Shown: positions 18,215 through 32,814 of the stretch, piece after piece
How positions within the stretch are numbered: position 1 is the first letter of the stretch
Layout: each line of letters begins with the position of its first letter
Source: Candidatus Heimdallarchaeota archaeon
GTDB lineage: Archaea > Asgardarchaeota > Heimdallarchaeia > Heimdallarchaeales > Heimdallarchaeaceae
Reading direction: 5' to 3'
Length of the DNA: 64,000 bases
NCBI GenBank assembly: GCA_021399345.1
Contig: JAAFKI010000112.1
Coordinates: forward strand, 1-64,000
The notes under the pieces: generated by a model
The model's input: only the letters and a program-made list of their open reading frames with translations
Database searches by the model: none
Told to the model about the DNA's origin: nothing
Program-made: the position numbers and the translations under genes

Positions 18215-18395
18215 TTCAAGAATTAACGAAGAAAATTCTGTCTACAGCTATAAAAATCTAATCCAAAAGATTGGTCATGGTATAATTTGCATGAAACCAA
18301 TACCTTGTCGTACTTAGAATCGTTTGAGGCTAGGTTGTGGTTAGCAACAGTTAAATATTATACTCGTGAAAGTCGTTCCATTAGAGGGTAAGATT

Positions 18396-19406
18396 ATGAC
18401 TAGAGATGTATCCTCACCAAACTACATCAAAAAAATAGCTTCAGCAGCTTATCCAGCTTTAGCGATGTTAGCAGGTGTTGATCTTGGTGTTTTTGCTGCA
18501 TTAAAGAATAAACCTATGAAAGCTAAGGATATTGCAACTACCCTTCGTGTAAAACAAGACAAACTAGAACCCTTACTCTATGCTCTTGTAACTGCAGAAT
18601 TGCTAAGATTAAATGATAATCTCTTTTCAAATACAAGGGAAGCTAATCAGTTTTTGATTCCTAATGCTTCATCATATATAGGAACTCATCCATTTCTCAA
18701 TCCGCTGATAATGTGGTGGGGTTATTATGGAGCTCTAAAGACTGCAGACACAATTAGAACCGGATCCCCCGCCCTAAAATATGATTTTGCTTCTAAATCG
18801 GAAGAAGAATTGAAGCAAGACTTTCAACACACTCAACCTATTGCTGTAAGAGCTGGACGTGAGCTAGTAGATAAATTCGATTTTTCCTCTTATCAAACAG
18901 TAGTAGATGTTGGAGGTGGACCTGGTGGACTATCTATCGCTATTACTGAATTGTTACCTAATATCAAGGCAACAATAATAGATATCGCTTCAGTTACTCC
19001 AGTCTCACGATGGTTTGTGGAGCAAGCAGGATTGAGTGATAGAATTCAAGTTGTTACCGCTGATGCTGTTACTGGACCATTAACTGGTCAATATGATTTT
19101 GCAATCTTAAGAGCATTCATCCAAGTACTTTCTCCAGTCGATGCGCTCCAGTCACTCAAAAATGTCTACTCTATTATAAAGCCAGGAGGAAAGCTATACA
19201 TAGTAGGGCACATTCTAGACGACACCTACATCTCCCCACTTGAAGAAGTCTGGCATAAGCTCGGTAGTTTTAACTATTATGAAGTTCCATCACCCTATAC
19301 TGAGAAAGAACATCGAGAGTGGTTACTCAAGGCAGGTTTTACACAAATTGAAAGAAGCTTCTTACCTAATGATGATGGAGTAATCGTTGCACAAAAACCA
19401 TTTTAA
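18396..19406 (+). CDS. SAM-dependent O-methyltransferase (Methyltransf_2 with dimerisation domain)
   Basis: VDVGGGPG motif, N-terminal helical dimerisation domain, KPGGKL. Confidence 0.9.
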   Translation: MTRDVSSPNYIKKIASAAYPALAMLAGVDLGVFAALKNKPMKAKDIATTLRVKQDKLEPLLYALVTAELLRLNDNLFSNTREANQFLIPNASSYIGTHPFLNPLIMWWGYYGALKTADTIRTGSPALKYDFASKSEEELKQDFQHTQPIAVRAGRELVDKFDFSSYQTVVDVGGGPGGLSIAITELLPNIKATIIDIASVTPVSRWFVEQAGLSDRIQVVTADAVTGPLTGQYDFAILRAFIQVLSPVDALQSLKNVYSIIKPGGKLYIVGHILDDTYISPLEEVWHKLGSFNYYEVPSPYTEKEHREWLLKAGFTQIERSFLPNDDGVIVAQKPF

Positions 19407-19444: not shown

Positions 19445-20311
19445 CTAATTCAATCCTATAATTTCTCCATCTTCTGTGTAGTCCATTTTGTTAGCAGCAG
19501 GAACTGGAGGTAATCCAGGCAACAAGAACATGCTTCCACAAACAGGAACTATAAATTTAGCACCAGTATAAAGACGAACTTCGTCTACATTTAGAGTCCA
19601 ACCTTTTGGAGCACCCATTAAACCTATTTTATCAGAAAGACTTAGTTGGGTCTTAGCCATACACATTGGGAAGTCAGCAAAACCTAGTTTTTCAATGGAT
19701 GCAATTTCCTGTAAAGCTCTAGGTGTGTATTCAACTTCTTCTGCTCCATAAACTTTCTTAGCGATTTTCTCAATTTTAACTTTGATAGGATCAGAGAATT
19801 CGTAGGCGAATTCAACATTGCCTTTACCCTTTTCAATTGCTTCTAAAACTGCTTCAGCTAAAGCGATACCACCTTCACCACCTTTCATGAAAACTTCACT
19901 TTCAGCAGCAGTAACGCCAAGAGATTCACATTTGTTTTTAATCCATGCCATTTCTTCATCATTGTCAAATGGGAAGCGGTTAATAGCAACAACAGGAGGG
20001 ATGTTGAAGACATTGAGCATATTGTCGAGATGTTTTTCAACATTTTCGAAACCTTTGGCAAGAGCATCTAGGTTTTTGATTTTAGCTTCATCAAGGTCTT
20101 TGATACCACCATGGAGCTTAAGAGCTCTTGCAGTAACAACGAGAACAACAGCGTTAGGTAAGGTATCATATTGACGAGCAACAATATCAACGAATTTTTC
20201 GAAACCTAAGTCAGCGGCGAAGCTACCTTCAGTAATGGTATAATCTGCTAATTTAAGGGCAAGTTTTGTACCAATAATAGAACTGTTACCATGAGCGATA
20301 TTAGCAAAGGG
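19445..20311 (-). pseudogene. fhs: Headless 3' half of formate--tetrahydrofolate ligase (288 codons plus stop)
   Basis: Open frame PFANIAHGNSS...DGEIIGLN collinear with intact fhs; in-frame stop at 20324-20326 and no start codon before the homology; EGSFAAD replaces EGGFAAD. Confidence 0.9.
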
Positions 20312-20521
20312 TAGTTGAAAGAATTATTAAAAACCACCAAAAGAAATCTTGCTCAAAAGTGAAACAGATTTTAGTTGAGTTAACACTATTAGAGAAAGAA
20401 TAAAAAACCTAAATGGCAAATACTGATGGTTTTTATACCCAAAATCACAGTTTTTAGAATTTCTTTTAAAGCAATAAGAGAATCTGTTTTTTGACACAAC
20501 TAATTTAAGGAAGGATAAAAA

Positions 20522-21157
20522 ATGAAAAAACAACAAATAAAGAAAAGGACTCTAATTTGTTCATTTATCTTATTTTCAACATTATTACTAATTACACCTA
20601 TTCACACATTAGCAATACAACCAGAGAATGTTGATGTGACTATAAGGATTGCAGATTTTGACACTCTTTATAAAGATAAGGATGTGACTTCCGCTGGAGA
20701 CGTTTATTTTAAGATAATACATGATACAGGAACAGAAGAATCAGGTACAGCTTGGAATGACTATGAAGACGAAGGCGATTATGATTTATCTAATACTGAT
20801 TTTGATGGAAATGGATATTATGATGAACAATACTGGAATGTTGATTTGGATACTGGAGATCTTACATGGATCATAGAAGTTTGGGATGAAGACAATGTCG
20901 GAGGAGATGATCTATTATTTAGAGGTACTTTAACAATAAAAGATCCAGGGACATCAGGATCCCATTCAAATGATAATGTTATTGCTTATGACGAGTGGAT
21001 TTGGAGTGTGTACCTACAAGAGTTAATACCTTGGGGATTTACTACTAATACTGATTATCTGCGCTTTCAATGGGATGATGGTCCTCATAAACAGACTTCA
21101 ACTTGGAAAATATCTAATGGATTAATATTATGGATATCACTCTACTACTCAATTTAG
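20522..21157 (+). CDS. Secreted acidic protein with C2-like Ca2+-binding domain
   Basis: Signal peptide; KDVTSAGDVYFKI and IIEVWDEDNVGGDDLL match C2 loops 1 and 3; DFDGNG motif. Confidence 0.6.
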   Translation: MKKQQIKKRTLICSFILFSTLLLITPIHTLAIQPENVDVTIRIADFDTLYKDKDVTSAGDVYFKIIHDTGTEESGTAWNDYEDEGDYDLSNTDFDGNGYYDEQYWNVDLDTGDLTWIIEVWDEDNVGGDDLLFRGTLTIKDPGTSGSHSNDNVIAYDEWIWSVYLQELIPWGFTTNTDYLRFQWDDGPHKQTSTWKISNGLILWISLYYSI

Positions 21158-21282
21158 AAATTAATGCTTTATGGTTTGATTGGTCAAATCATAAATTTTT
21201 TTAAAATTTGATAGAATTTAAAAAGAACTATTTAAATTAAGAAAACTTAAAGTATTGATTTAACAATTAAGGATTTGAGATA

Positions 21283-23985
21283 ATGAAGTGGAATAAATTA
21301 AAGATATCAGTTCTTTTGTTCTTACCGTTATTATTTTCAAGCGTTACTACTTATATTGTCTATTCAGGTCATTTTAACAACTATCATGAGCATTTTAATA
21401 TATTAATGACAGAAACTTTTCCTGATTATTCCTTTTTAATTGAAGATGAACTAAGTCTACTTGATCCTGATTTTGATGTGAACACTTTTCTCAACCAGTT
21501 CAAACTAGAATCTGTTGTGTATATTGGACGTTTAAGGTGTGAATTAGTGATTAATTCAAGCATCTATGACACTGTGGTTTTTTGGGCACCAGAAGAATAT
21601 TATTTAGAGCATAGTAAGGTAGCTATTGGAGAAAATGAAATTTTGATGGATGAGTCACTCTCAATATTGGAAAATATTGAAGTAAATTTCGATCTTTCTT
21701 TAAACTTCAGTTATGCTAGTAACAATATAACAATATCAACCCAAGTAGGGAATTTTGTTGATTTTGAAGATGTCTTAACTAGTAGAGTTGTTTCACGAAG
21801 TTGGTCCAGATCAGAAGGGGAAAAATACTTGTTTCTTTTATCAGAAACTTTTGAAGATTTGTTTGGTGATTTCTTTGAAAATCTCACGATTCAGTATCTT
21901 CCGTTATTCGAATTTTCAGAAGCTATCATTAGTTCATATTTACCTCACAAATTAGACGACTTCTTGGTTGAGAGAAGGATTGAGCTAGATTCTTACTTTG
22001 ATTATACATATGATAGCACTAATAGTTATGAGAGGAACTTAAGAACAAATTCACTGGAATGGCATCTATCCAATTTTAATGACAACTTCAAGGAATATAC
22101 TTGGTCTCGTGTTGCAGTGTTTTATATAATCTGTTTTGGTATTAGTGCAGTTGTCATAACTAATACTTCTCGGGGATTTTTCAAATCACAAAAAGAACGA
22201 ATAGAATTTTACTATTTAAGAGGGAGCAAAAAATCTGATTTGCTTTATGATTTCTTAAAACTTGAAACTAAATTGGCATTTTATGTCTTGTTAGGCGGAT
22301 TCTTGGTATCAACTCTTATTATGGGAGTTTTACAGCCAAAATTGTTAGCTTCTACTTATAACCATGTATTGAATCTGTTGGTAAATTGTATAACAGCAAT
22401 TATTTATTGTTCCATACAATTCGTAGTATCAGCTGATAGTCTATCAATGATTTACAGAAGAAATGAGAAGAAGGAGAAATTTTTACTTAATAAGATAATC
22501 ATTGCATTTAAAAACGGATTACAATGGATTATTCTTTGCATAGCTTTAGCAGTATCATTATACCTTTACCTTTTTACCGGTATAGAGAAAGTGGAGAAGA
22601 GTGCAGTTTTTTTATATATTTTTACCTTGGTTATTGCCTTAATCTTACTTCTTGTAATCTCAAAAAGAACAATCGTATGGATAGGAGAAAAATTCATTTC
22701 ACTTCTGAACAGTCTCTCTTCTATAAGCAAATATACTCTAAAAGTATCAAAGAAAGTAATTAGAGTTAATTCTCTGGTAATTCAGATGTTAATCCTATTT
22801 GGTTTTATATGTTCCTTTTTTGTAGTAGGTTTAGATACAATCAACCATTACAATTACATCAATCAACAAAATAATGCAATTGGTGAAATAATTATAAATT
22901 ATCCTGAAGAAAATGCAGAATTGGTTAAAACTCAGTTAGCTAATTTTACTGCACAATATTTTGAAATTGAATATGTTGTATCTCCGCTGGATTTTGTAAT
23001 TGATGTTAATACAAGTATTGCTAGTGGATTGACAGTTTTTCTCCTGAATAGTAGCACGATAGCACAATTTTTCAATTCTGATATTGTCAAAAAGAAATAC
23101 TCAGGCTCTTATGAACCTACTCAGTTGGTTACAGATTTAAATACGGATTGGAACCTGTCAATAATTAATCGTGCTTATGCTGATCAAGCTACTATTCAAC
23201 TTGGTGAAACAACAGAACTTCCTCTCCCAATAATAGTTGATCCATGGGTTTATCCAGAAGATTTGTATAATATTACAATATTAGATATTGTAGAGTTTGT
23301 ACCATTTTTTTCAGGAATTTCACAAGAAAAACCTTTTGTACTTTTGAACAAGGAAATAACTCAAAATAGAACAAAAATAGATGTCATCTCACTGTACCAA
23401 ATTCTTTGGCTTAATGAGAATAGTTCTGTGGAAAACCTTGAAGAATACATACTAGATATAAATAGAGAATTTAATCTCGGAATAGAGATTTATAATCTAG
23501 ATGAGAAAAGCCTATTCACTGATGAATATTGGCTTCCTAATGTTTTACAGACACTAATTTTATCTCTTTTTACAGTTTTAATGATATGTTTAATTTTCCT
23601 CTTTTTTGTTTTCTATGTGGATGTCATTAGATTTCAAATTCATAATTTTCGAACATTCTTTGCACGAGGTTTATCTATAAAGAAAGGTATCATTTATTCA
23701 GTTCTTCCAGTTTTTCTATTTACTTTAGGTTACATAATATTTGGATTTGTATTAGGTGTATCTTTACTGTCAATTGTACTTACAACTATACAACCTGAAT
23801 ACTATCTGAGAATACCTGTTGCTATTTTTCCATATTCTTTTCTTGTGTTTATAGGTCAAATAACTCTTTTGTGTTGTGCATTGTTTCTAGCAAGTTTAAT
23901 TTCTTATAAGAAACTACAGCAACAAATACCCACAATAGATAGAATTGTTTTCACAGTTTTCAAGGATGAAGGAGGTATTATATGA
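21283..23985 (+). CDS. FtsX/MacB-like ABC permease (duplicated architecture)
   Basis: Two large extracytoplasmic domains, each followed by TM clusters with YYLRGSKKS and FARGLSIKK coupling motifs. Confidence 0.75.
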   Translation: MKWNKLKISVLLFLPLLFSSVTTYIVYSGHFNNYHEHFNILMTETFPDYSFLIEDELSLLDPDFDVNTFLNQFKLESVVYIGRLRCELVINSSIYDTVVFWAPEEYYLEHSKVAIGENEILMDESLSILENIEVNFDLSLNFSYASNNITISTQVGNFVDFEDVLTSRVVSRSWSRSEGEKYLFLLSETFEDLFGDFFENLTIQYLPLFEFSEAIISSYLPHKLDDFLVERRIELDSYFDYTYDSTNSYERNLRTNSLEWHLSNFNDNFKEYTWSRVAVFYIICFGISAVVITNTSRGFFKSQKERIEFYYLRGSKKSDLLYDFLKLETKLAFYVLLGGFLVSTLIMGVLQPKLLASTYNHVLNLLVNCITAIIYCSIQFVVSADSLSMIYRRNEKKEKFLLNKIIIAFKNGLQWIILCIALAVSLYLYLFTGIEKVEKSAVFLYIFTLVIALILLLVISKRTIVWIGEKFISLLNSLSSISKYTLKVSKKVIRVNSLVIQMLILFGFICSFFVVGLDTINHYNYINQQNNAIGEIIINYPEENAELVKTQLANFTAQYFEIEYVVSPLDFVIDVNTSIASGLTVFLLNSSTIAQFFNSDIVKKKYSGSYEPTQLVTDLNTDWNLSIINRAYADQATIQLGETTELPLPIIVDPWVYPEDLYNITILDIVEFVPFFSGISQEKPFVLLNKEITQNRTKIDVISLYQILWLNENSSVENLEEYILDINREFNLGIEIYNLDEKSLFTDEYWLPNVLQTLILSLFTVLMICLIFLFFVFYVDVIRFQIHNFRTFFARGLSIKKGIIYSVLPVFLFTLGYIIFGFVLGVSLLSIVLTTIQPEYYLRIPVAIFPYSFLVFIGQITLLCCALFLASLISYKKLQQQIPTIDRIVFTVFKDEGGII

Positions 23986-24025
23986 AAAAAAACTCGATAA
24001 ATATAGTAATTCAGGAGAGAAAAGT

Positions 24026-24712
24026 ATGAGTAGAAGGAAAAGTACTATTATTGAAATTTCTAACTTAGTTCATATCTACAAGGGTAAGATCGAAACTACA
24101 GCTTTAGCAGGTGTTAATCTTTCCGTCAAAAAAGGAGAACGCTTGGTTATTAGAGGAAAATCAGGAATTGGTAAAACAACATTACTACACTGTATTGCAG
24201 GAATACTTCGACCTACTGAAGGTAGAATTCTTGTAGACAATCAAGAAATTCTTCAGTATAACGAAAATCAACTAGCTGACTACAGATGTAAAACTGTAGG
24301 TTTAATCTATCAGTCTTACAATTTAGCGCAGTTCCTAACTGTTAAAGAAAATATAGAATTTCCTATGTTATTGGTAAAAACACCACAAGAAAAAAGAGAA
24401 AAACGTATTGAAGAGCTAACAGAATTTCTAGAAATTAGTAGATACCTTGAGCAAAAACCTGAATTCTTGAGTGGAGGGGAACAACAACGAGTTGCGATTG
24501 CGATTGCTTTAGCAAATAATCCTCCCATAATATTAGCAGATGAACCCACAGGTAATATTGATGTAGAAACTGCAGAAATAGTTTACACCAATTTATCTCA
24601 TATGTGTCAAATCTATAACACAACCCTTGTGATAGCATCACATGATCCTGAAGCTTCAAAATATACAGAAAGAGAGGTAATTCTAACAAGATTAGAATCG
24701 AAAAAAAGATAA
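24026..24712 (+). CDS. ABC transporter ATP-binding protein (LolD/MacB-like)
   Basis: [28 protein letters not shown]; start moved to MSRRK. Confidence 0.93.
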
Positions 24713-24716
24713 AAAA

Positions 24717-25148
24717 ATGAAGATTAGTAGAAGAAAGAAACTTATCGAATATAGAAAAGTCTGGGATGAATTTGCAGATTGGACTGCAGAAAGTTTTCAA
24801 GCAAATAAACTTGCTTGGCATAATGGAGTACAGATAGGAGAGGGAATGAGATTCAGATACCATTTAGGTAAATGGCAATTTATGGATGACAGTGGAAATT
24901 GGAATGATGCTCTATTGGGAACAGCTGCAAGATGTGCACAGTCTGGACCAAATTCATTGAATATATATCAAGATGTATTTGGAGCATCAGGAAGGGGTGG
25001 TATGAACATCTTTCCATGTCATAATGGTTTATTCCAGTATTATGTAGACAAAATAATCAATGAATTTTGCAGGTTGATACTAAACAAACCAGAAAGTAAA
25101 AAAATAGGAGATATAATAGACTATATTTTAACGAATTGGAGTTTCTAA
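24717..25148 (+). CDS. Hypothetical Trp/Gly-rich protein
   Basis: 143 aa ORF starting 4 bp after the ABC ATPase; no recognised family. Confidence 0.5.
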   Translation: MKISRRKKLIEYRKVWDEFADWTAESFQANKLAWHNGVQIGEGMRFRYHLGKWQFMDDSGNWNDALLGTAARCAQSGPNSLNIYQDVFGASGRGGMNIFPCHNGLFQYYVDKIINEFCRLILNKPESKKIGDIIDYILTNWSF

Positions 25149-25166
25149 AAATAATAAAAAGTAGGG

Positions 25167-26858
25167 TTAGTTCAACCCTATAATATCTCCATCTTCTGTA
25201 TAGTCCATCCTGTTAGCAGCAGGAACGGGAGGTAGTCCAGGTAACAAGAACATGCTTCCACAAACAGGAACTATAAATTTAGCACCTGTATAAAGACGAA
25301 CTTCGTCTACATTCAAAGTCCAGCCTTTTGGAGCACCCATTAAACCAATTTTATCAGAAAGACTAAGTTGGGTCTTAGCCATACAGAGAGGAAAATCAGA
25401 AAAACCTAGAGTTTCAATAACTTTGATGTCTTGATCAGCTTGAGGAGAATACTCAACATCTTTAGCACCATAGATCTTGGTAGCGATTTTTTCAATCTTG
25501 GTTTTAATAGAATCGGAGAATTCATAAGCAAATTTGACATCGCCAGAACCTTTTTCGATGGCAGCAAGAACGGCTTCAGCGAGGTCGAGACCACCCTCAC
25601 CACCTTTCATGAAAACTTCACTTTCAGCAGCAGTGACGCCAAGAGATTCGCATTTCTGTTTGATCCAAGCCATTTCTTCATCATTGTCGAAGGGGAAGCG
25701 GTTAATAGCAACAACAGGAGGGATGTTGAAGACATTGAGCATATTGTCGAGATGTTTTTCGACATTTTCGAAACCTTTGGCAAGAGCGTCGAGGTTCTTT
25801 TCTTTGGCTTGATCCAAATCTTTGATTCCACCATGGAGCTTGAGAGCTCTTGCAGTAACAACGAGAACAACAGCATTGGGGAGAGTGTCATACTGGCGAG
25901 CGACAATGTCAACGAATTTTTCGAAACCTAAGTCAGCAGCAAAACCGCCTTCAGTAATGGTATAATCAGCCAATTTGAGAGCGAGCTTGGTGCCGATGAT
26001 GCTAGAATTGCCGTGGGCAACGTTCGCGAAGGGTCCTGCGTGAATGAATCCTGGTACTCCTTCAAAGTTTTGCACTAGGTTTGGTTTTATTGCATCTTTC
26101 AGTATTAGTGTCATAGCTCCTACTGCTTCAATATCCTTTGCGAATACTGGTTTATCATCATAAGTATATCCTAATAGAATACTTCCTAACCTTTCTTTTA
26201 GTTCTCCCACATCAGCCGATAGAGCTAAAATAGCCATTATTTCTGAAGCTGCTGTGATAACAAAACCTGTGTTTAGGATGTCACCACCCATTCTTCTTCC
26301 ACCAAGTCCAGTAATGATATTTCTTAATGCTCTATCATTCATATCTATTGTTCTTGGCCAAGTTACTTTGGTTGGATCAATATTACACTTATTTCCTTTT
26401 GTCAAATGATTATCAAGCAAAGCTGCAAGTAAATTATGAGCAGAAGTAATTGCATGTATATCTCCTGTAAAGTGCAGATTTATGTCCCACATTGGAAACA
26501 CTTGAGAGTATCCACCACCTGTAGCTCCTCCTTTTATTCCAAAAGTTGGTCCCATACTTGGTTCTCTTAATGCAAACATTACACTTTTGCCTATCTTTTG
26601 CATTGCTTGAGATAGACCTATTGTGGTAACTGTCTTTCCTTCACCAGCTCTTGAAGCAGTCATTGCTGTAACTGCAATTAGTTTTCCATTTGGTTTTTCA
26701 GAATTTAGTATCTTTAGCATGGTTTGATAGTTTATTTTTGCTACATACTTTCCAAATTGCTCTAGGTCATCTTCTTCTAGACCTACTTTTGCAGCAATTT
26801 CTCTAATGTTTTTCATATCTTTTGCTTTTTCTTGAGCAATTTCAATGTCTTTCTTCAT
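25167..26858 (-). CDS. fhs: Formate--tetrahydrofolate ligase
   Basis: GEGKTVTT, LREPSMGP, GGGYSQV, HFTGD, GPFANVAHG, CMAKTQ, PGLP motifs. Confidence 0.97.
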   Translation of the reverse strand: MKKDIEIAQEKAKDMKNIREIAAKVGLEEDDLEQFGKYVAKINYQTMLKILNSEKPNGKLIAVTAMTASRAGEGKTVTTIGLSQAMQKIGKSVMFALREPSMGPTFGIKGGATGGGYSQVFPMWDINLHFTGDIHAITSAHNLLAALLDNHLTKGNKCNIDPTKVTWPRTIDMNDRALRNIITGLGGRRMGGDILNTGFVITAASEIMAILALSADVGELKERLGSILLGYTYDDKPVFAKDIEAVGAMTLILKDAIKPNLVQNFEGVPGFIHAGPFANVAHGNSSIIGTKLALKLADYTITEGGFAADLGFEKFVDIVARQYDTLPNAVVLVVTARALKLHGGIKDLDQAKEKNLDALAKGFENVEKHLDNMLNVFNIPPVVAINRFPFDNDEEMAWIKQKCESLGVTAAESEVFMKGGEGGLDLAEAVLAAIEKGSGDVKFAYEFSDSIKTKIEKIATKIYGAKDVEYSPQADQDIKVIETLGFSDFPLCMAKTQLSLSDKIGLMGAPKGWTLNVDEVRLYTGAKFIVPVCGSMFLLPGLPPVPAANRMDYTEDGDIIGLN

Positions 26859-27155
26859 TATAATCATCATCTAAGATTGTTAGTTGAACCCCCTTTCTGA
26901 GTTTCAATTAAAAAATATTTGGATGTAGTAATAATACTGGTTTCAACAATCTTGTTCCGTTAAAACCATATTTAAAGAAAATTTATTTGCTAAATCATAT
27001 AACAGAATTCAGATAATCAGATTACTCACTATTTTAATAGCAAAAACCCTTTTCTAATAATTTTTTCTGATAGAATGTTGTCAAATAGATACGTTCTAAA
27101 ATGTCCATATCCCTTGAAGCATAGAATTCAAAATCATAGAGTAGTGTATATTTTA

Positions 27156-28133
27156 ATGAGATGCGAACACCCACAATGTAATGTTGATGCTGACATACTT
27201 TTCTATTGTAGATTCTGTAGGGGGTCATTCTGTCAAAACCACAGAGATTCGCAAAATCACAATTGTCCTTCAGTAAATCAAAGAACAGGTACAGCTCCTG
27301 GTGCACCTCAAAGTTCTGTTACACCTGCTGAAGCTATGCGACGATTTGCCCATAGCGTCGCTCAAGCTGCTCAACAATCTCAACAATCTAAACAATCTAA
27401 ACAATCTCAACAATCACAACCTGCACCTAAGTACTTTGATGATGAAAAAAGTAAGAAAAAATTCATTGAAAAACGTCTTACCGAATCTGGACAACTTTTT
27501 ACATTTGGTAATGAAATATTGGACATTCTTTTCGGTTTTGCTCTAATTGTGCTTGTTTTTGGTCTCTTTCAATATCTAGCTGGTTCAACAGATATTTGGT
27601 GGTGGGGATTTGTAGTCTCCATTGCCTTAGTTGGCACTGCTTTCCTACCTCATGAACTAGCTCATAAGTTTGTAGCCATAAGAAAAGGTCAATATGCTAG
27701 ATACATCCTTTGGGTAAGGGGATTGATGTTTACTCTATTAACAATGGTAATCGGTATAGGTCTAATCGTTCCTGGTTTTGTTGCTATTGTTCCGATGAGC
27801 AGACAAATGGACAAAAGGGATCTAGGATTGGTTGCTTTTGCTGGACCTTTTACAAATGCGATAATAGGATTTGTTAGCTTGATTTTTGGTTTCTTGACTC
27901 ATTTTGGTGCTATAGCTTTACCTCCTCTTTTAGCAAGTCCAAATATCTTTATCCTAGTTGCTCAGTTTAATGGATTAATTGCTCTCTTCAATTGCATACC
28001 AGTCTGGCAACTTGATGGCAAGAAAATATTGAATTGGAGTAAAGTCGCATATTTTGCACTAATCGCCGCTAATCTGGCACTAGTCATACCTGCGTTCATA
28101 ATCAATCCCTCCTTTCTTTCAGGAGGATCATGA
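27156..28133 (+). CDS. AN1-type zinc finger plus site-2 protease (M50) membrane peptidase
   Basis: C..PQC...C.FC...FC..H....H.C; HELAH, AGP, NCIPVWQLDG. Confidence 0.88.
   Translation: MRCEHPQCNVDADILFYCRFCRGSFCQNHRDSQNHNCPSVNQRTGTAPGAPQSSVTPAEAMRRFAHSVAQAAQQSQQSKQSKQSQQSQPAPKYFDDEKSKKKFIEKRLTESGQLFTFGNEILDILFGFALIVLVFGLFQYLAGSTDIWWWGFVVSIALVGTAFLPHELAHKFVAIRKGQYARYILWVRGLMFTLLTMVIGIGLIVPGFVAIVPMSRQMDKRDLGLVAFAGPFTNAIIGFVSLIFGFLTHFGAIALPPLLASPNIFILVAQFNGLIALFNCIPVWQLDGKKILNWSKVAYFALIAANLALVIPAFIINPSFLSGGS
27372..27416 (+). repeat. Five in-frame 9-bp tandem repeats (C/A)AACAATC(T/A) encoding QQS/KQS
   Basis: Seen directly in the linker of the M50 peptidase. Confidence 0.9.
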
Positions 28134-28181
28134 CTTATCTAAAATTGAGATTTTGTAAGACAAGCTTTTCTGATTTTAGTT

Positions 28182-30632
28182 TTATTTGTTCGTTAAGAAG
28201 GTGTTATCTATGAAACCAGTTATCGATCTACGTTCTTCATAATTTAGATTTAAGCCAGATTTACTGAAAGAGACTAATCTTTCCCAGATACTACCAGATT
28301 CATTTAAAATTCTTGAAAAATCGTCTAGTTTATGAATTGCTGCAAATGATTTTCCAACGAAAAAATAACTAAAGAATAGCGTATCTATCCTTCTAAGTAT
28401 ATAGGAATAATCGTACAACCGTCCTCTTCTTGCTGTTTTATGATTTGTTTCTTCTTCTATCTGTGTTTTCATTTCTGGTAAAATTCTTTCTATTATATCA
28501 TCTTCCAAAGTATCCATTAATTTCTCAGAGAATAATATTTCACCAAATTCAGTAAAAATAAAGATTATGACAGGTTTTTCATCTTCTTTTTCAACTTCTG
28601 CAGGAAGGACTACTCCTTTCTTTAACATCTGACTTAACATATCTTCTATTCTTGTGAGTTCTAAAATCTCTACAATGGAAGGAAGTTTTGTAGTAAACTT
28701 TCTCCATAAATCGAGCTGACTAATTAAGAAATCGTGTTCATCTGAAATCTTTCTAGCCATAAGATTCAAACCTTTTTCCTCAGCCATCACTTGTGCATTA
28801 AAATACAAACGTTGTGCTTCTTCAGCATTCAATTCAAGAAGTGAAATTTGGGATTGTAACCAATAAGTCTGCACAAGTAAAGGATAAGTAAGCTCTCTAA
28901 TCCCTATTTGCTGTAATTGATTTATAAAGAATTTAAGCTCTTCTAGTAACTTATAGTCTTCTGATTCCTTCAATTCAATGAGTAAAAGATCGCATAAGTT
29001 TAATATTGCAGTTTCAACAATCCGATATTCTACATCTTTCTCATTGATAATATATTTTAGTAATTCTTTGGCTTTCATTCTATCTTGAACATTCTTATTT
29101 CTTTTTAGAACTAAAGCTGTTGAGAGTTTATTAGTTATTTCGAGTACTTTATTTTCTAACTCCTTATCAATTTCCTGTAACGATTGCAAATAAGTAGCAG
29201 CTTTCTCTAAATCCTCCAAATCAAGATAACAAGAAATGAGGTTGGAATAATCTAATGCTAAGTAGAGTTTGTTTTTTTGATTATTGGATGTTTTTCTTAC
29301 TTCATAGAAATAGTGTAAGGCCTTATCATACGCCCCCTTCATTTGAAAAATCCTTCCAATATTAACTAAAGATTCTCTTATTCCATCTGGTCTTTCAAGA
29401 ATTCTAAAATTTTCAAGAGAGTCAGTATAATTTTTCAAAGCTTTATCCAAATCTCCCTTTTTTAGATCTATTTGACCTTTTTGTGATTGAGCTATCGCTA
29501 ATCCTTCAACATCTTCTCTTTCATCAAAATATTCTATTAACTCATTAATGAATTCTAAAGCTCTGTTTAACTCTCCCTTGTATATAAATGCTGAAGTTAA
29601 ACCAGTTTGAATTGCATGAATTGTCCTGTTTGATTCGGCTTCTTTTGCGTTCGACAAAGCTTCATACAAAAGAGTCACTCCTTTTTCATACTCCATCTCT
29701 CCATAGATTACACCATTTGCATAATTGTAAAGAGATAAAGCAGTTAATATTCTATCACCAATTTCACGAAATAAATCACTTGCAATCTTACTATGTTTTA
29801 ATGATAGATCTGATTCACCTTTCTGATTGTACGCCTCATCTAGAGCAAAATGTACGCTTGCTTTAAGCCTTTTTGATCCTATTTCTTCATTGAGGAGAAG
29901 AGCTTCTTCAAGAAGATCAATTGCAGTATCATGATTACCCGAAAAAGCATGCATCATACCTTTTCTAAAAAGAATACTTGCATGACCAATCTTATTCTCA
30001 TCCCTTTTCCAGATTTCTTGAGATTCTTCATAACATTCAAAGGCTTCTTTATACCTTGATTCGAGGTAAAAAAACCAGCCTTTAAGTTCCAAGGAAATAG
30101 CTACTCCATAGTCATAATTTCGTTCGCGACTAAGGTTAATGCATTCATCAAAAGAATCTATTATCTGATCGAAGCTTTCTGGTAGATAGAATTCAAAATA
30201 TCTCTTAGAGATTGTTATTATTCTTACTCTTTGAATTAATAAATCGATTTTTCTTGTAAACATTTCATGTGAATCTATAATTTTAGATTTCTGTAGAATT
30301 TGTTCAGCTTCTTCAAGAAAATCTAATCCTTCTTTCGCTTTACCTAAAATTTCAAAATTTTCAGCTTTACAAATGTAATAATCTAGTTGTTGAACATCAT
30401 TACCAATTTCAAAAATCTCATTATTTATTTCTTCTAGCAAGTTAAGAGCTTGAATGTGATGATTAAGTTTGGTTAAAACCCGGCATTTGAGTAGTTGATA
30501 GACTATTCTTGTTTCTCTAGATGTTGCATTGGAAGATAGAACAGATTGAATTTTCTCCAATAAATGGATACTATGACCTTTTCTAATTAACTGTTCTATT
30601 TGTTCTGGTGTTTCAGAAACAAAATCTGTCAT
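28182..30632 (-). CDS. Large TPR protein with C-terminal longin-like domain
   Basis: More than 10 TPR units; C-terminal IIFIFTEFGEILFS...YSYILRRI..LFFSYFFVG alpha/beta domain. Confidence 0.75.
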   Translation of the reverse strand: MTDFVSETPEQIEQLIRKGHSIHLLEKIQSVLSSNATSRETRIVYQLLKCRVLTKLNHHIQALNLLEEINNEIFEIGNDVQQLDYYICKAENFEILGKAKEGLDFLEEAEQILQKSKIIDSHEMFTRKIDLLIQRVRIITISKRYFEFYLPESFDQIIDSFDECINLSRERNYDYGVAISLELKGWFFYLESRYKEAFECYEESQEIWKRDENKIGHASILFRKGMMHAFSGNHDTAIDLLEEALLLNEEIGSKRLKASVHFALDEAYNQKGESDLSLKHSKIASDLFREIGDRILTALSLYNYANGVIYGEMEYEKGVTLLYEALSNAKEAESNRTIHAIQTGLTSAFIYKGELNRALEFINELIEYFDEREDVEGLAIAQSQKGQIDLKKGDLDKALKNYTDSLENFRILERPDGIRESLVNIGRIFQMKGAYDKALHYFYEVRKTSNNQKNKLYLALDYSNLISCYLDLEDLEKAATYLQSLQEIDKELENKVLEITNKLSTALVLKRNKNVQDRMKAKELLKYIINEKDVEYRIVETAILNLCDLLLIELKESEDYKLLEELKFFINQLQQIGIRELTYPLLVQTYWLQSQISLLELNAEEAQRLYFNAQVMAEEKGLNLMARKISDEHDFLISQLDLWRKFTTKLPSIVEILELTRIEDMLSQMLKKGVVLPAEVEKEDEKPVIIFIFTEFGEILFSEKLMDTLEDDIIERILPEMKTQIEEETNHKTARRGRLYDYSYILRRIDTLFFSYFFVGKSFAAIHKLDDFSRILNESGSIWERLVSFSKSGLNLNYEERRSITGFIDNTFLTNK

Positions 30633-30746
30633 TATAGTGACTCCTTAAACAAAATAAACAGAAATTAAACTATCTTTTATACTTTCTGGAAAAATCTGTA
30701 TTTTCACCAAAATTTAAATAGGTTGTAGACACACTGTTCACATACA

Positions 30747-31214
30747 ATGCCAGACATTGCAACTTCAGATAAAGTTCGTATTCGTGCTAGAGCAAAAAAT
30801 TTTGTTTTAGACCTGTGGGGAGGTCCATTCAAGAACAGTTTTTTGGTGTACGATATAACACTTAGAGCTTTATATAAACATGCAGCAAGATGGAATTTCT
30901 GCTTATTATGCGGTGAAATTGATATTGTTAAGAATTTAACAACAAATCATGATTGTATTAAAGACTACACTGAAAAATTAAGTGAAGATCAGCTTTCAAA
31001 TCCAAAAAACATACCAATGATAATATCAACAAGTTGGATTAAACTAAAAGAATTTTTCCTAACTAATAAACATATAACAACGTTAAATGAATTAGGAGTA
31101 GAAATAAAATACAAAGAAGATATTCCTGTAATTACTACTTCTAAAGATGTTTCAATTGTTAAAGAAGATATTTCAGAGAAAGAAAAAGCAAGAATTCAAA
31201 GTGATAGCAGTTAA
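30747..31214 (+). CDS. Hypothetical protein with CxxC...HxC putative Zn site
   Basis: CLLC...HDC; ATG start preceded by an AT-rich promoter-like box. Confidence 0.55.
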   Translation: MPDIATSDKVRIRARAKNFVLDLWGGPFKNSFLVYDITLRALYKHAARWNFCLLCGEIDIVKNLTTNHDCIKDYTEKLSEDQLSNPKNIPMIISTSWIKLKEFFLTNKHITTLNELGVEIKYKEDIPVITTSKDVSIVKEDISEKEKARIQSDSS

Positions 31215-31356
31215 TTTCCTACAAATTTAGCTATTTTTTTTCATTGAAACTGAAAGATTATGTCTCAAGAGAGAAAATATGTAGACAAAATGTTTATATA
31301 GAGTGTCAACATGTTGTTTACTTGGTTCTATTTAAACAGAATCTCAAGGTGAAAAA

Positions 31357-32583
31357 ATGAAAAAAAAAGCTATAATGTCAAGAAGAAAGATTATAGTGAT
31401 AACTGTTACTACACTAATTATCTTTTCTCTAAATATGAGTACAACCGTTAGTATGTCAACCGTGGACGATTACAAAATATCCAAACCTTTTAATCTAGCT
31501 TTAACACTTCATGGCCCCATAGAAATAATCACTGATGATAATTTTACTGATTATGGTTTTCCTGGCTCAGGAACAGATGTAGACCCTTACATTATTCAAG
31601 AATATAACATTACTACCACAAGCGGAAGTGGAATTTCCATAGAAGATACGACTAAGTATTTTGTTATTCGTGACTGTTATATTGATGCTGATATTTATGG
31701 TATTTACATTAGTTATGTTGCTGATGGAACAGCTACAATCATAAATAACATTTGTACTAATAACAATGATGATGGTATCTTTCTGTGTCATGCTAGTTTT
31801 TCTACTCTGATTAATAACACTTGTACTAACAACGACTACGGTATCTGTATGCTTGGTTCTGCTAGTTCTACTCTGACTGATAACACTTGTAATAACAACA
31901 ATAAGGGAATCAATCTGTATAGTTGTCTTAGTTCTACTCTGACTGATAACACTTGTACAAGCAACAATTATGGTATCTATCTGTATAGTTCTTCTGGTTC
32001 AACTCTTGCAGATAACACTTGTACCAACAACTTGGATGGTATCAATGTGGGACGTTCTTCTTTTTCTACTCTGACTGATAACACTTGTACAAACAACATT
32101 GACAGAGGAATCTATGTAGAGTATTCTTCTGAAGTTACTCTGACTGATAACACTTGTACAAACAACAATTATGGTATCTATCTGCTTAATTCTTATACTT
32201 GTCTTTTTACTGACAATCTTTTACAAGAAAATGAAGAATATGGAATCTACTTAAATTCTCTTTCTGATGACACCATTATTTATCACAATTATTTTGTAGA
32301 CAATAACCTAGGAGGTATTTCACAAGCTAATGATAATGGAACAAATAATTTCTGGTGTAATAAAGAAACCAAACTAGGGAATTACTGGTCTGGTCACGAG
32401 AAAGGAAAATATATTATTGATGGTTCTGCTAATTCAACGGATCCATATCCACTCAAAGAAATTTACGGCACTGAAAGAATCGGAGGTTCTTCTATCCTTC
32501 TAATTTCCTTTATGATTTCAACTATTCTGATTACTCTTGTTAGAAGAAAGAGAAAACACGAAAAGGACGTTAATAATAAATGA
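31357..32583 (+). CDS. Surface-anchored right-handed beta-helix (NosD/pectate lyase-like) protein
   Basis: Signal/TM N-terminus, G.GT..DPYII, PbH1 repeats (NTC.NN..GI.L), GNYW..D.YPL, C-terminal TM plus basic tail. Confidence 0.88.
   Translation: MKKKAIMSRRKIIVITVTTLIIFSLNMSTTVSMSTVDDYKISKPFNLALTLHGPIEIITDDNFTDYGFPGSGTDVDPYIIQEYNITTTSGSGISIEDTTKYFVIRDCYIDADIYGIYISYVADGTATIINNICTNNNDDGIFLCHASFSTLINNTCTNNDYGICMLGSASSTLTDNTCNNNNKGINLYSCLSSTLTDNTCTSNNYGIYLYSSSGSTLADNTCTNNLDGINVGRSSFSTLTDNTCTNNIDRGIYVEYSSEVTLTDNTCTNNNYGIYLLNSYTCLFTDNLLQENEEYGIYLNSLSDDTIIYHNYFVDNNLGGISQANDNGTNNFWCNKETKLGNYWSGHEKGKYIIDGSANSTDPYPLKEIYGTERIGGSSILLISFMISTILITLVRRKRKHEKDVNNK
31801..32199 (+). repeat. Six in-frame 66-69 bp tandem repeats
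   Basis: Units start at 31801, 31867, 31933, 31999, 32065 and 32134 and share a core close to ACTCTGACTGATAACACTTGT. Confidence 0.9.
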
Positions 32584-32814
32584 CAATTGGAGAAATAATG
32601 GTTAATATAATTTGTTGGTTTGCAGTTAATAGGTTTAGTCTACTGTTCTGACAATTAATTTCTCCTATTCTTTTTTCCTTCTTTTTATCTGATCTTCGTT
32701 ATGCTCTATGTGGTTTCAATCAAAAAAGATAATTATAGGGACTCTTAACTAGATTAGGGATGAACAAGGCATTACTGAGAGCTTTTGCTCTATGACGAGT
32801 CATAGTTAGTCTGA

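Follow-up and report, generated by a model that had tools for sequence, protein, structure and literature searches.

In E. coli, e14 and phage 21 integrate within icd by means of a tyrosine integrase, carry an identical attachment (att) core at both junctions and replace about 50 codons of the gene. Displacement of C-terminal ends with orphan 3' fragments was reportedly described for Rhs/CdiA by Jackson and colleagues in 2009, and insertion with long target duplication is said to have been described for restriction-modification units by Nobusato and colleagues in 2000. For restriction-modification units inserted in this way the repeats measure 46-420 bp and the target duplications are near-identical (Furuta et al., 2010, PMC2853133). 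The orphan 3' ends of Rhs and type VI secretion system (T6SS) loci have been ascribed to homology-facilitated illegitimate recombination without an integrase (Kirchberger et al., 2017, PMC5361080), and gene hybrids formed by mobile open reading frames (mORFs) are found in fungal mitochondria, in atp6 of Allomyces and in atp6, atp9, cox2 and nad3 of Glomus (PMC3630166). Here we analyze a 64,000-nt stretch of Candidatus Heimdallarchaeota archaeon (contig JAAFKI010000112.1, positions 1 to 64,000; hereafter the window), in which the last half of fhs, the gene for formate-tetrahydrofolate ligase, is present twice with several kilobases of unrelated genes in between. No description of such half-gene displacement on an archaeal chromosome was found in the literature searched, which does not prove its absence.

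Intact and headless copies of fhs

The window belongs to a metagenome-assembled genome (MAG) of 88.6% completeness, coded G000; its relatives are coded G001 upward, loci Lnnn and contigs Cnnn. An open reading frame (ORF) listing, a repeat search and alignment were applied to the locus, and gene positions are numbered along the intact fhs. The intact gene (25167-26870, minus strand) encodes 567 aa, matches PF01268 at 790 bits and has 4ioj as its closest PDB entry (E 1.5e-194). Its headless counterpart, displaced downstream by 5722 nt (19445-20311, minus strand), comprises codons 281-567 and the stop codon and covers positions 271-555 of the FTHFS profile (PF01268, 359 bits). The 5' half is absent and two in-frame TAA codons lie just upstream, yet the frame is open to the stop. 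Alignment and Pfam thus confirm the original prediction that the last part of fhs occurs once within an intact gene and once as a headless open copy. Across the 864 nt compared, identity between the copies is 83.6% for DNA and 90.3% for protein; the synonymous divergence (dS) is 0.80 and the nonsynonymous to synonymous ratio (dN/dS) 0.09. Because dN/dS is only 0.09, the copies diverged as working genes in separate lineages; the idea that the fragment is an old decaying pseudogene is ruled out by this ratio at a dS of 0.80.

The two parts of the intact gene have different affinities. Codons 1-280 are 91% identical to those of G013, G011 and G009, and the intact 3' half is 79-85% identical to theirs. 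Judged by these comparisons, codons 1-280 follow the core-genome history and the intact 3' half (25167-26030) comes from a different allele lineage. The same kind of boundary separates the fhs genes of G011 and G013, which differ at 18 of the first 836 nt (97.6% identical, dS 0.097) and at 190 of the last 868 nt (78%, dS 1.29). Seven consecutive third positions are changed from nt 837, and likeness returns for 167 nt past the stop codon. The maximum likelihood (ML) trees are incongruent: the 5' half places G011 and G013 together as a sister pair (SH-aLRT 99), whereas in the 3'-half tree G011 groups with the window intact copy (97) and G013 with the window fragment (95), and the fragments of G020 and G013 cluster with alleles of other species. 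Separate trees of the two halves had been suggested beforehand, and they are discordant, with G011 and G013 sisters only for the 5' half. An insertion in the middle of fhs that supplies a replacement 3' half and so swaps alleles, as originally proposed, is supported by these trees, by dS and by the empty sites described below.

Which of the two halves is native can be judged from the distance to G013: dS is 0.34 for the window fragment, 0.37 for the 5' half and 0.75 for the intact 3' half. The fragment is favored as the native 3' half because its dS matches that of the 5' half, and we regard this polarity as only moderately secure. Its identity to the functional fhs of G013 is 92% (locally 99%). 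The intact 3' half, however, is the allele of G018, a relative just as close, so that two arrangements circulate within the species complex. The window copies also share patches of 92-98% identity (nt 1066-1200 and 1516-1650), which we read as the signature of later gene conversion, and the first 150 nt of the fragment resemble the G005 and G009 alleles, not the lineage of the intact copy.

Contigs of independent public assemblies span both the junction of fragment and cargo and that of cargo and intact fhs. On its other side the fragment adjoins an O-methyltransferase gene (18366-19406, plus strand), assigned by Pfam, collinear with L046 and arranged as in an empty site of G014. The junction between this gene and the fragment is unbridged in the public runs, and the same adjacency is found in G014 and G007; three of the four public runs have no contig cover over the O-methyltransferase and are uninformative about its presence. 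An odd contig joint from 19531 to 25162 was set aside as probably a two-place alignment. No circle joint was listed among the joints of the public-run contigs (contigs only, not reads).

Junctions, empty sites and cargo

Fhs was searched for in 25 species genomes of the genus, all MAGs of 72-92% completeness; 19 of them carry the gene and 20 fhs loci were retrieved, and a metagenome scan contributed nine further contigs of the genus. The empty site expected in relatives was found. The O-methyltransferase directly follows fhs in G014, and in G009, which is among the two closest relatives and 95% identical in the flanks, fhs lies 11 nt from an acyltransferase gene. A 251-aa gene follows fhs in G005 and G022. 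G008 has the same arrangement with one solute-binding-protein gene and a new 3' end added, and there the displaced fragment retains its native downstream DNA. One metagenome contig (about 97% identical in the flank) connects position 18268 of the window directly to 25162, and in another 2459 different bases replace the O-methyltransferase. The left edge of the variable island lies at 18268-18274, where similarity to G009, G018 and the metagenome contigs ends. Headless 3' fragments are present downstream of fhs in nine of the 19 fhs-bearing genomes, with arrays of two or three in G020, G011, G007, G001 and G013. The cargos in relatives include beta-helix/NosD surface proteins, a caspase-like peptidase, a beta-lactamase-fold protein, a P-type ATPase, SHOCT proteins, a subtilase, an amidohydrolase, a MarR regulator and a TdeIII-family restriction enzyme. 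A second full-length fhs was found in none of the 25 species genomes. The counter-case named at the outset, an ancient full-length paralog with variable truncation points, therefore lacks its paralog here, and fragments of other lengths do occur.

In the window the insertion point within the intact gene lies at its Gly-Pro-Phe codons (GGACCC|TTC, gene nt 835-843; 26025-26036, minus strand). The cargo end meets the displaced fragment at 20306-20330 (minus strand), where six nt, ACCCTT, are common with the intact gene and the sequences are otherwise unrelated. The repeat is limited by the stop codon at one end and by the Phe codon of GPFANIAHG (gene nt 841) at the other. A start within the GPFAN motif had been predicted correctly, but at the preceding Pro; the apparent Pro codon of the fragment belongs to the ACCCTT (AAGGGT on the plus strand) that is common to both window junctions. 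The sharing of AAGGGT itself holds, at 6 nt in the window and 0-3 nt in the other junctions of this class (class A, nt 841). In the window the homology might reach 19 nt farther upstream of nt 841 (12 matches in 16, one gap), but this weak match was dropped, as other cassettes do not show it.

The same nucleotide, T841, is the start of seven fragments: the one in the window, three in G020, and one each in G016:C209 (the same as metagenome L082), G013:C61 and metagenome L078. The fragment of G010:C63 begins a few bases past it. Different cargos at the same point had been predicted, and at least six others were found at T841. The DNA on the cargo side of these junctions comprises six to seven distinct flanks, which are unlike up to the junction itself; the only flank shared at nt 841 is that of G020:C69 and metagenome L078. 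Apart from 0-6 nt, these six to seven distinct junctions have no core in common, and no motif recurs on their cargo sides. Further fragments begin near nt 1133, 1393, 1465, 1507, 1525, 1615, 1652 and 1663, and the short fragment t2 of G011 is a decayed form of a longer fragment in G013:C19. The recurrence of nt 841, as read from these alignments, suggests a site-specific break.

The sequence around this point is unusual in two respects. Among 15 intact fhs genes the third-position diversity reaches its gene-wide maximum (0.6) at nt 820-900, over the most conserved protein motif. Directly before this peak, nt 757-820 are low in diversity across the 15 species, and the 42 nt from 781 to 822 are nearly invariant even synonymously (nt 757-900 correspond to window 25971-26114). 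At nt 841-900 the GC content of third codon positions is 75% in the window intact allele vs 15% in the fragment. The second respect is the motif GGNCC, which occurs in fhs at two sites, nt 319 and nt 835, both conserved in 15 of 15 genes. The Gly-Pro codons cannot be recoded to escape it: GGNCCN always holds GGNCC. The G000 genome contains 2103 GGNCC sites vs about 2570 expected from base composition, a mild under-representation. A gene for a type II restriction endonuclease of the TdeIII family lies in the fhs island of G013 (L037, G013:C61, 5521-6276) and adjoins an orphan ORF of 382 aa, with no methyltransferase domain detected nearby. By its Pfam description the TdeIII family would be a GGNCC cutter; confirmation was sought in the literature and not obtained. 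The connection between GGNCC and TdeIII was made only after seeing the data and is suggestive. GGNCC is at most a local explanation because the junctions at three other places in the genome, described next, are without it.

A direct-repeat scan of G000 revealed the fhs-like layout at these three further places, and each time the repeat spans from an internal point of a gene to its stop codon. At the ABCE1/RLI gene (C184:38235-41393, L052) a headless copy of the last ~79 codons lies 1.3 kb downstream, with a 220-aa orphan between. The last 30 codons of a fixX-like ferredoxin gene (C175:16880-19835, L053) recur 2.6 kb downstream of it, and the cargo of this cassette consists of a 385-aa protein with seven C2H2 zinc fingers and a 415-aa orphan. 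At C152:27551-34517 (L054) two neighboring genes, for a 406-aa orphan and a TetR regulator, are each repeated in their 3' ends some 3.9 kb farther downstream (95% and 86% identity), and the repeats enclose a BNR-repeat protein and a TauE exporter. C2H2 zinc-finger arrays were found in none of the fhs loci scanned and at two places elsewhere in G000 (C110 and C175). Nuclease-driven cassettes may exist in the lineage, but the fhs cassettes show none.

The cargo of the window is of mixed origin. Its main part is an ABC-transporter module (20522-24712, plus strand; PF00005 and translations), which encodes a 211-aa secreted protein (20522-21157), a 900-aa polytopic membrane protein that is a candidate FtsX/MacB-like permease (21283-23985), and the ABC ATPase (23945-24712, PF00005), all on the plus strand and labeled c1-c3. 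The fourth ORF (143 aa; 24717-25148, plus strand) is not a whole gene. It is a truncated C-terminal remnant of about 132 codons from the c4 gene family of 513 to 900 aa, and the 513-aa gene is intact in G016; a Protein Atlas look-up of this relative's 513-aa protein gave no usable match. The c4 remnant and the intact fhs 3' end are together collinear with G018:C218, at 90%. The ABC module occurs in four neighborhoods in four species: the window, G013:C101, G020:C8 and G021:C182 (loci including L073, L074 and L075). The copy in G013:C101 (L073, 8430-12390) is 92% identical in nucleotides to that of the window and follows a gene of 473 aa, the final 22 codons of which recur beyond the module (62 nt, 82% identical), so that the layout of fhs is repeated at another gene. 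The G020 copy is intergenic, with no target duplication detectable. From these neighborhoods we consider the window cassette to be a composite patchwork in which the ABC module is probably passive cargo.

Searches for the enzymes of mobile elements covered about 50 cargo ORFs from 15 loci, and no match to recombinase, transposase or nuclease families was found with Pfam or NCBIfam. Nuclease motifs were looked for in the 562-aa (fam26) and 494-aa ORFs that adjoin fhs in G011 and G013; the two ORFs resemble a polytopic membrane protein and an acidic protein. Four opposite-strand cargo genes without a recombinase had been predicted for the window; the lack of a recombinase domain holds, and the fourth gene is the remnant just described. 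Tyrosine recombinases (PF00589) were not found in G000 (88.6% complete), G013, G011, G007, G008, G016 or G009. Small serine recombinases of two families (~252 and 257 aa) are present in 23 of the 25 genomes, unlinked to and away from the fhs locus. Across the genus, tyrosine recombinases, Xer-type included, were detected in only 13 of 25 genomes, G000 not among them.

Another insertion was noticed farther along the window. A 4.6-kb block (28155-32710) with genes for an 816-aa TPR protein, a 155-aa ORF and a 408-aa beta-helix protein is inserted cleanly relative to G009, G011, G013 and G018. It lies between a zf-AN1/M50 protease gene and the next core gene, and a target duplication is not visible. 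The zf-AN1/M50 protease gene holds five tandem 9-nt repeats (CTCAACAAT-like) at 27361-27420.

Explanations for the displaced 3' ends

We propose that the locus arose by recombinase-independent, homology-primed break repair at a recurrent break site, with displacement of the 3' end, and that later homologous recombination shuffles the half-gene alleles; on balance we find this explanation slightly on the probable side. The stretch from the acyltransferase flank (about 18270) to fhs would be a gene-acquisition hot spot of the genus, with fhs as the homology anchor. The chromosome would break at the invariant Gly-Pro codons (gene nt 835-840) or immediately beside them, and the left end, bearing the fhs 5' half, would invade a foreign fhs allele on incoming DNA of a related strain. 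The donor 3' half would then be copied together with whatever follows, here the c4-family remnant and the ABC-transporter module, and the new end would be ligated to the opposite side of the break, either with no homology or by a microhomology of 0-6 nt. In this way fhs would stay whole with a foreign back half, and the native half would be left headless and promoterless before the O-methyltransferase. Repetition would build arrays, and homologous recombination between the copies or with other strains would later delete cargo, shorten fragments and make the 3' half mosaic. One-ended repair with end-joining is favored because the donor piece starts at the homologous point of fhs and its far end is joined without homology; homology-facilitated illegitimate recombination, as proposed for the orphan 3' ends of Rhs and T6SS loci (PMC5361080), would have the same outcome. 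The sequences compared show the insertion, the empty sites, the recurrence of nt 841 with different cargos, the allele swap, the lack of recombinase genes, the patchwork cargo and the scars elsewhere, and from them we infer that a break occurred, that copying was one-ended and that the ends were then joined.

Several points weigh against this explanation. No break or repair intermediate was observed in the public runs, which are available as contigs only. Seven junctions that agree within 1-4 nt are tighter than random breakage, which implies a site-specific agent. About ten cargo ORFs are without a detectable family and a novel nuclease or recombinase might be among them, and the small serine recombinases are present in 23 of the 25 genomes. 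The genomes are MAGs, 72-92% complete. Finally, the intact 3' half is also the allele of G018, which is among the two closest relatives, and this makes the polarity less secure.

A bolder version supplies the site-specific agent. A trans-acting sequence-specific nuclease, either of the TdeIII family or a zinc-finger nuclease of the lineage, would cut the Gly-Pro codons; synonymously recoded and resistant 3' halves would sweep in by break repair and drag their neighbors along, the back halves of core genes would serve as integron-like landing pads, and this process would be one of the principal ways in which Heimdall archaea gain genes. We offer this as a speculation that is possible but not probable.

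Campbell-type pop-in and pop-out could also be considered. Circles holding one 3' half and the cargo would form by recombination between the direct repeats, be transferred, and enter the chromosome through one crossover at any point of the 864-nt homology, and the edge at nt 841 would be inherited from a founder. The repeats are an ample substrate, the mosaic 3' halves with the 92-98% identical patches of the window copies fit such exchanges, the flank common to G020:C69 and L078 fits a shared founder, and loss of cargo that leaves chimeric alleles would account for the mosaics. An inherited edge, however, predicts one cargo-side flank and six to seven different ones abut nt 841; the first 150 nt of the fragment are like the G005/G009 alleles, not the reciprocal chimera of a single crossover; and the origin of founding cassettes at the same nucleotide is left unexplained. 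As the source of the cassettes this is unlikely. Recombination of this type may well spread and delete cassettes after their origin.

The original prediction had favored a satellite-like cassette mobilized in trans. In this model the cassette, consisting of cargo and 3' half, would leave as a circle and enter an att site within the GPFAN codons by means of a recombinase encoded elsewhere, either that of a helper element or a host enzyme such as the small serine recombinases. The junction at the same nucleotide in six to seven cassettes, the sharp allele boundary of G011 and G013 at nt 837 and the 42 nearly invariant nt (781-822) just upstream in 15 species are what an att site might look like, tandem arrays resemble accretion at att sites, and the small serine recombinases, found in 23 of 25 genomes, need only 2 bp of crossover identity. 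On the other side, the junctions are without a shared core or a conserved cargo-side arm, no recombinase was found in or beside any cassette scanned, and the search for tyrosine recombinases gave none in most of the genomes with cassettes, G000 included. The cassette is composite, with its ABC module also at unrelated loci; there are at least five other fragment start points in fhs; and unrelated genes with unrelated junction sequences share the architecture. Because the predicted common core, arm, discrete element and single target are unseen, a satellite with a helper integrase is not supported, and we consider mobilization by a recombinase in trans improbable. An artefact or old paralog, in which two strains were merged during assembly or an ancient second fhs left a relic, might be suggested by the MAG origin of the genome, the coexistence of several strains in the same samples and the differing fragment lengths among relatives, but is extremely improbable with two of three junctions bridged by independent assemblies, the architecture recurring in nine species genomes and metagenome contigs, no genome with a second full-length fhs, and a fragment 92% (locally 99%) identical to the functional fhs of G013 at a dN/dS of 0.09.

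No known organisms are closer to eukaryotes than the Asgard archaea, whose gene gain is poorly understood. The fhs locus shows that half of the gene for an essential one-carbon enzyme is exchanged horizontally as a module, and that several kilobases of accessory genes enter with it at a nucleotide-precise hot spot and at strain-level tempo, without any integrase found. The scars at ABCE1, the fixX-like gene and other genes point to a mechanism of general kind, as does the ABC module of a sister species, which there follows a different gene. Trees built from a single "core" marker of this type can be chimeric, and integrase-based detection will miss islands in these MAGs. If breaks recur at this motif, which is closed to recoding, it would provide a concrete target sequence for finding the responsible nuclease.

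Comparison with known systems

The insertions with long target duplication resemble the fhs locus in having no mobility genes and long direct repeats that match a single copy in the empty-site genome. Unlike those near-identical duplications, the fhs repeats are 864-nt diverged alleles (dS 0.80) that fall in different clades; because they are diverged alleles, one fhs copy came from outside. Integron features are absent: no tyrosine recombinase was found in G000, and no site is repeated between the cassettes besides the fhs fragments. With e14, phage 21 and the CIMEs, integrase-less derivatives of elements that enter genes at their 3' ends, the locus shares integration within a gene, an element-borne 3' end, a displaced pseudo-end and arrays that are possible by accretion. 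The fhs inserts differ from these in having no integrase or common core and in replacing half of the gene.

The arrays of Rhs, CdiA and T6SS loci are similar in process. In both cases the 5' part is conserved, a new 3' end arrives with its downstream genes, the old ends accumulate downstream as headless pieces, an integrase plays no part, and the array is later rearranged by homologous recombination. In those systems, however, the 3' tips are different toxins that are selected with their immunity genes, whereas the fhs halves encode the same part of one enzyme (90% protein identity). Fhs is furthermore a housekeeping enzyme gene of an archaeon, its cargo (transporters, surface proteins, enzymes) is unrelated, and most junctions fall on one nucleotide.

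In architecture the mORF gene hybrids (PMC3630166) are the closest analogue. There too a foreign C-terminus is in frame, the native C-terminus lies downstream as a remnant that groups with close relatives (and is unexpressed in the mORF case), the insertion is at a conserved coding motif, and the two ends differ mostly synonymously. The mORFs carry a LAGLIDADG or GIY-YIG endonuclease directly behind the new end, and in the fhs cassettes no nuclease domain was detected; the ORFs that adjoin fhs belong to an ABC module, a gene remnant, membrane proteins and surface proteins. In fhs, by comparison, 288 codons are replaced and the cargo amounts to several kilobases of ordinary genes.

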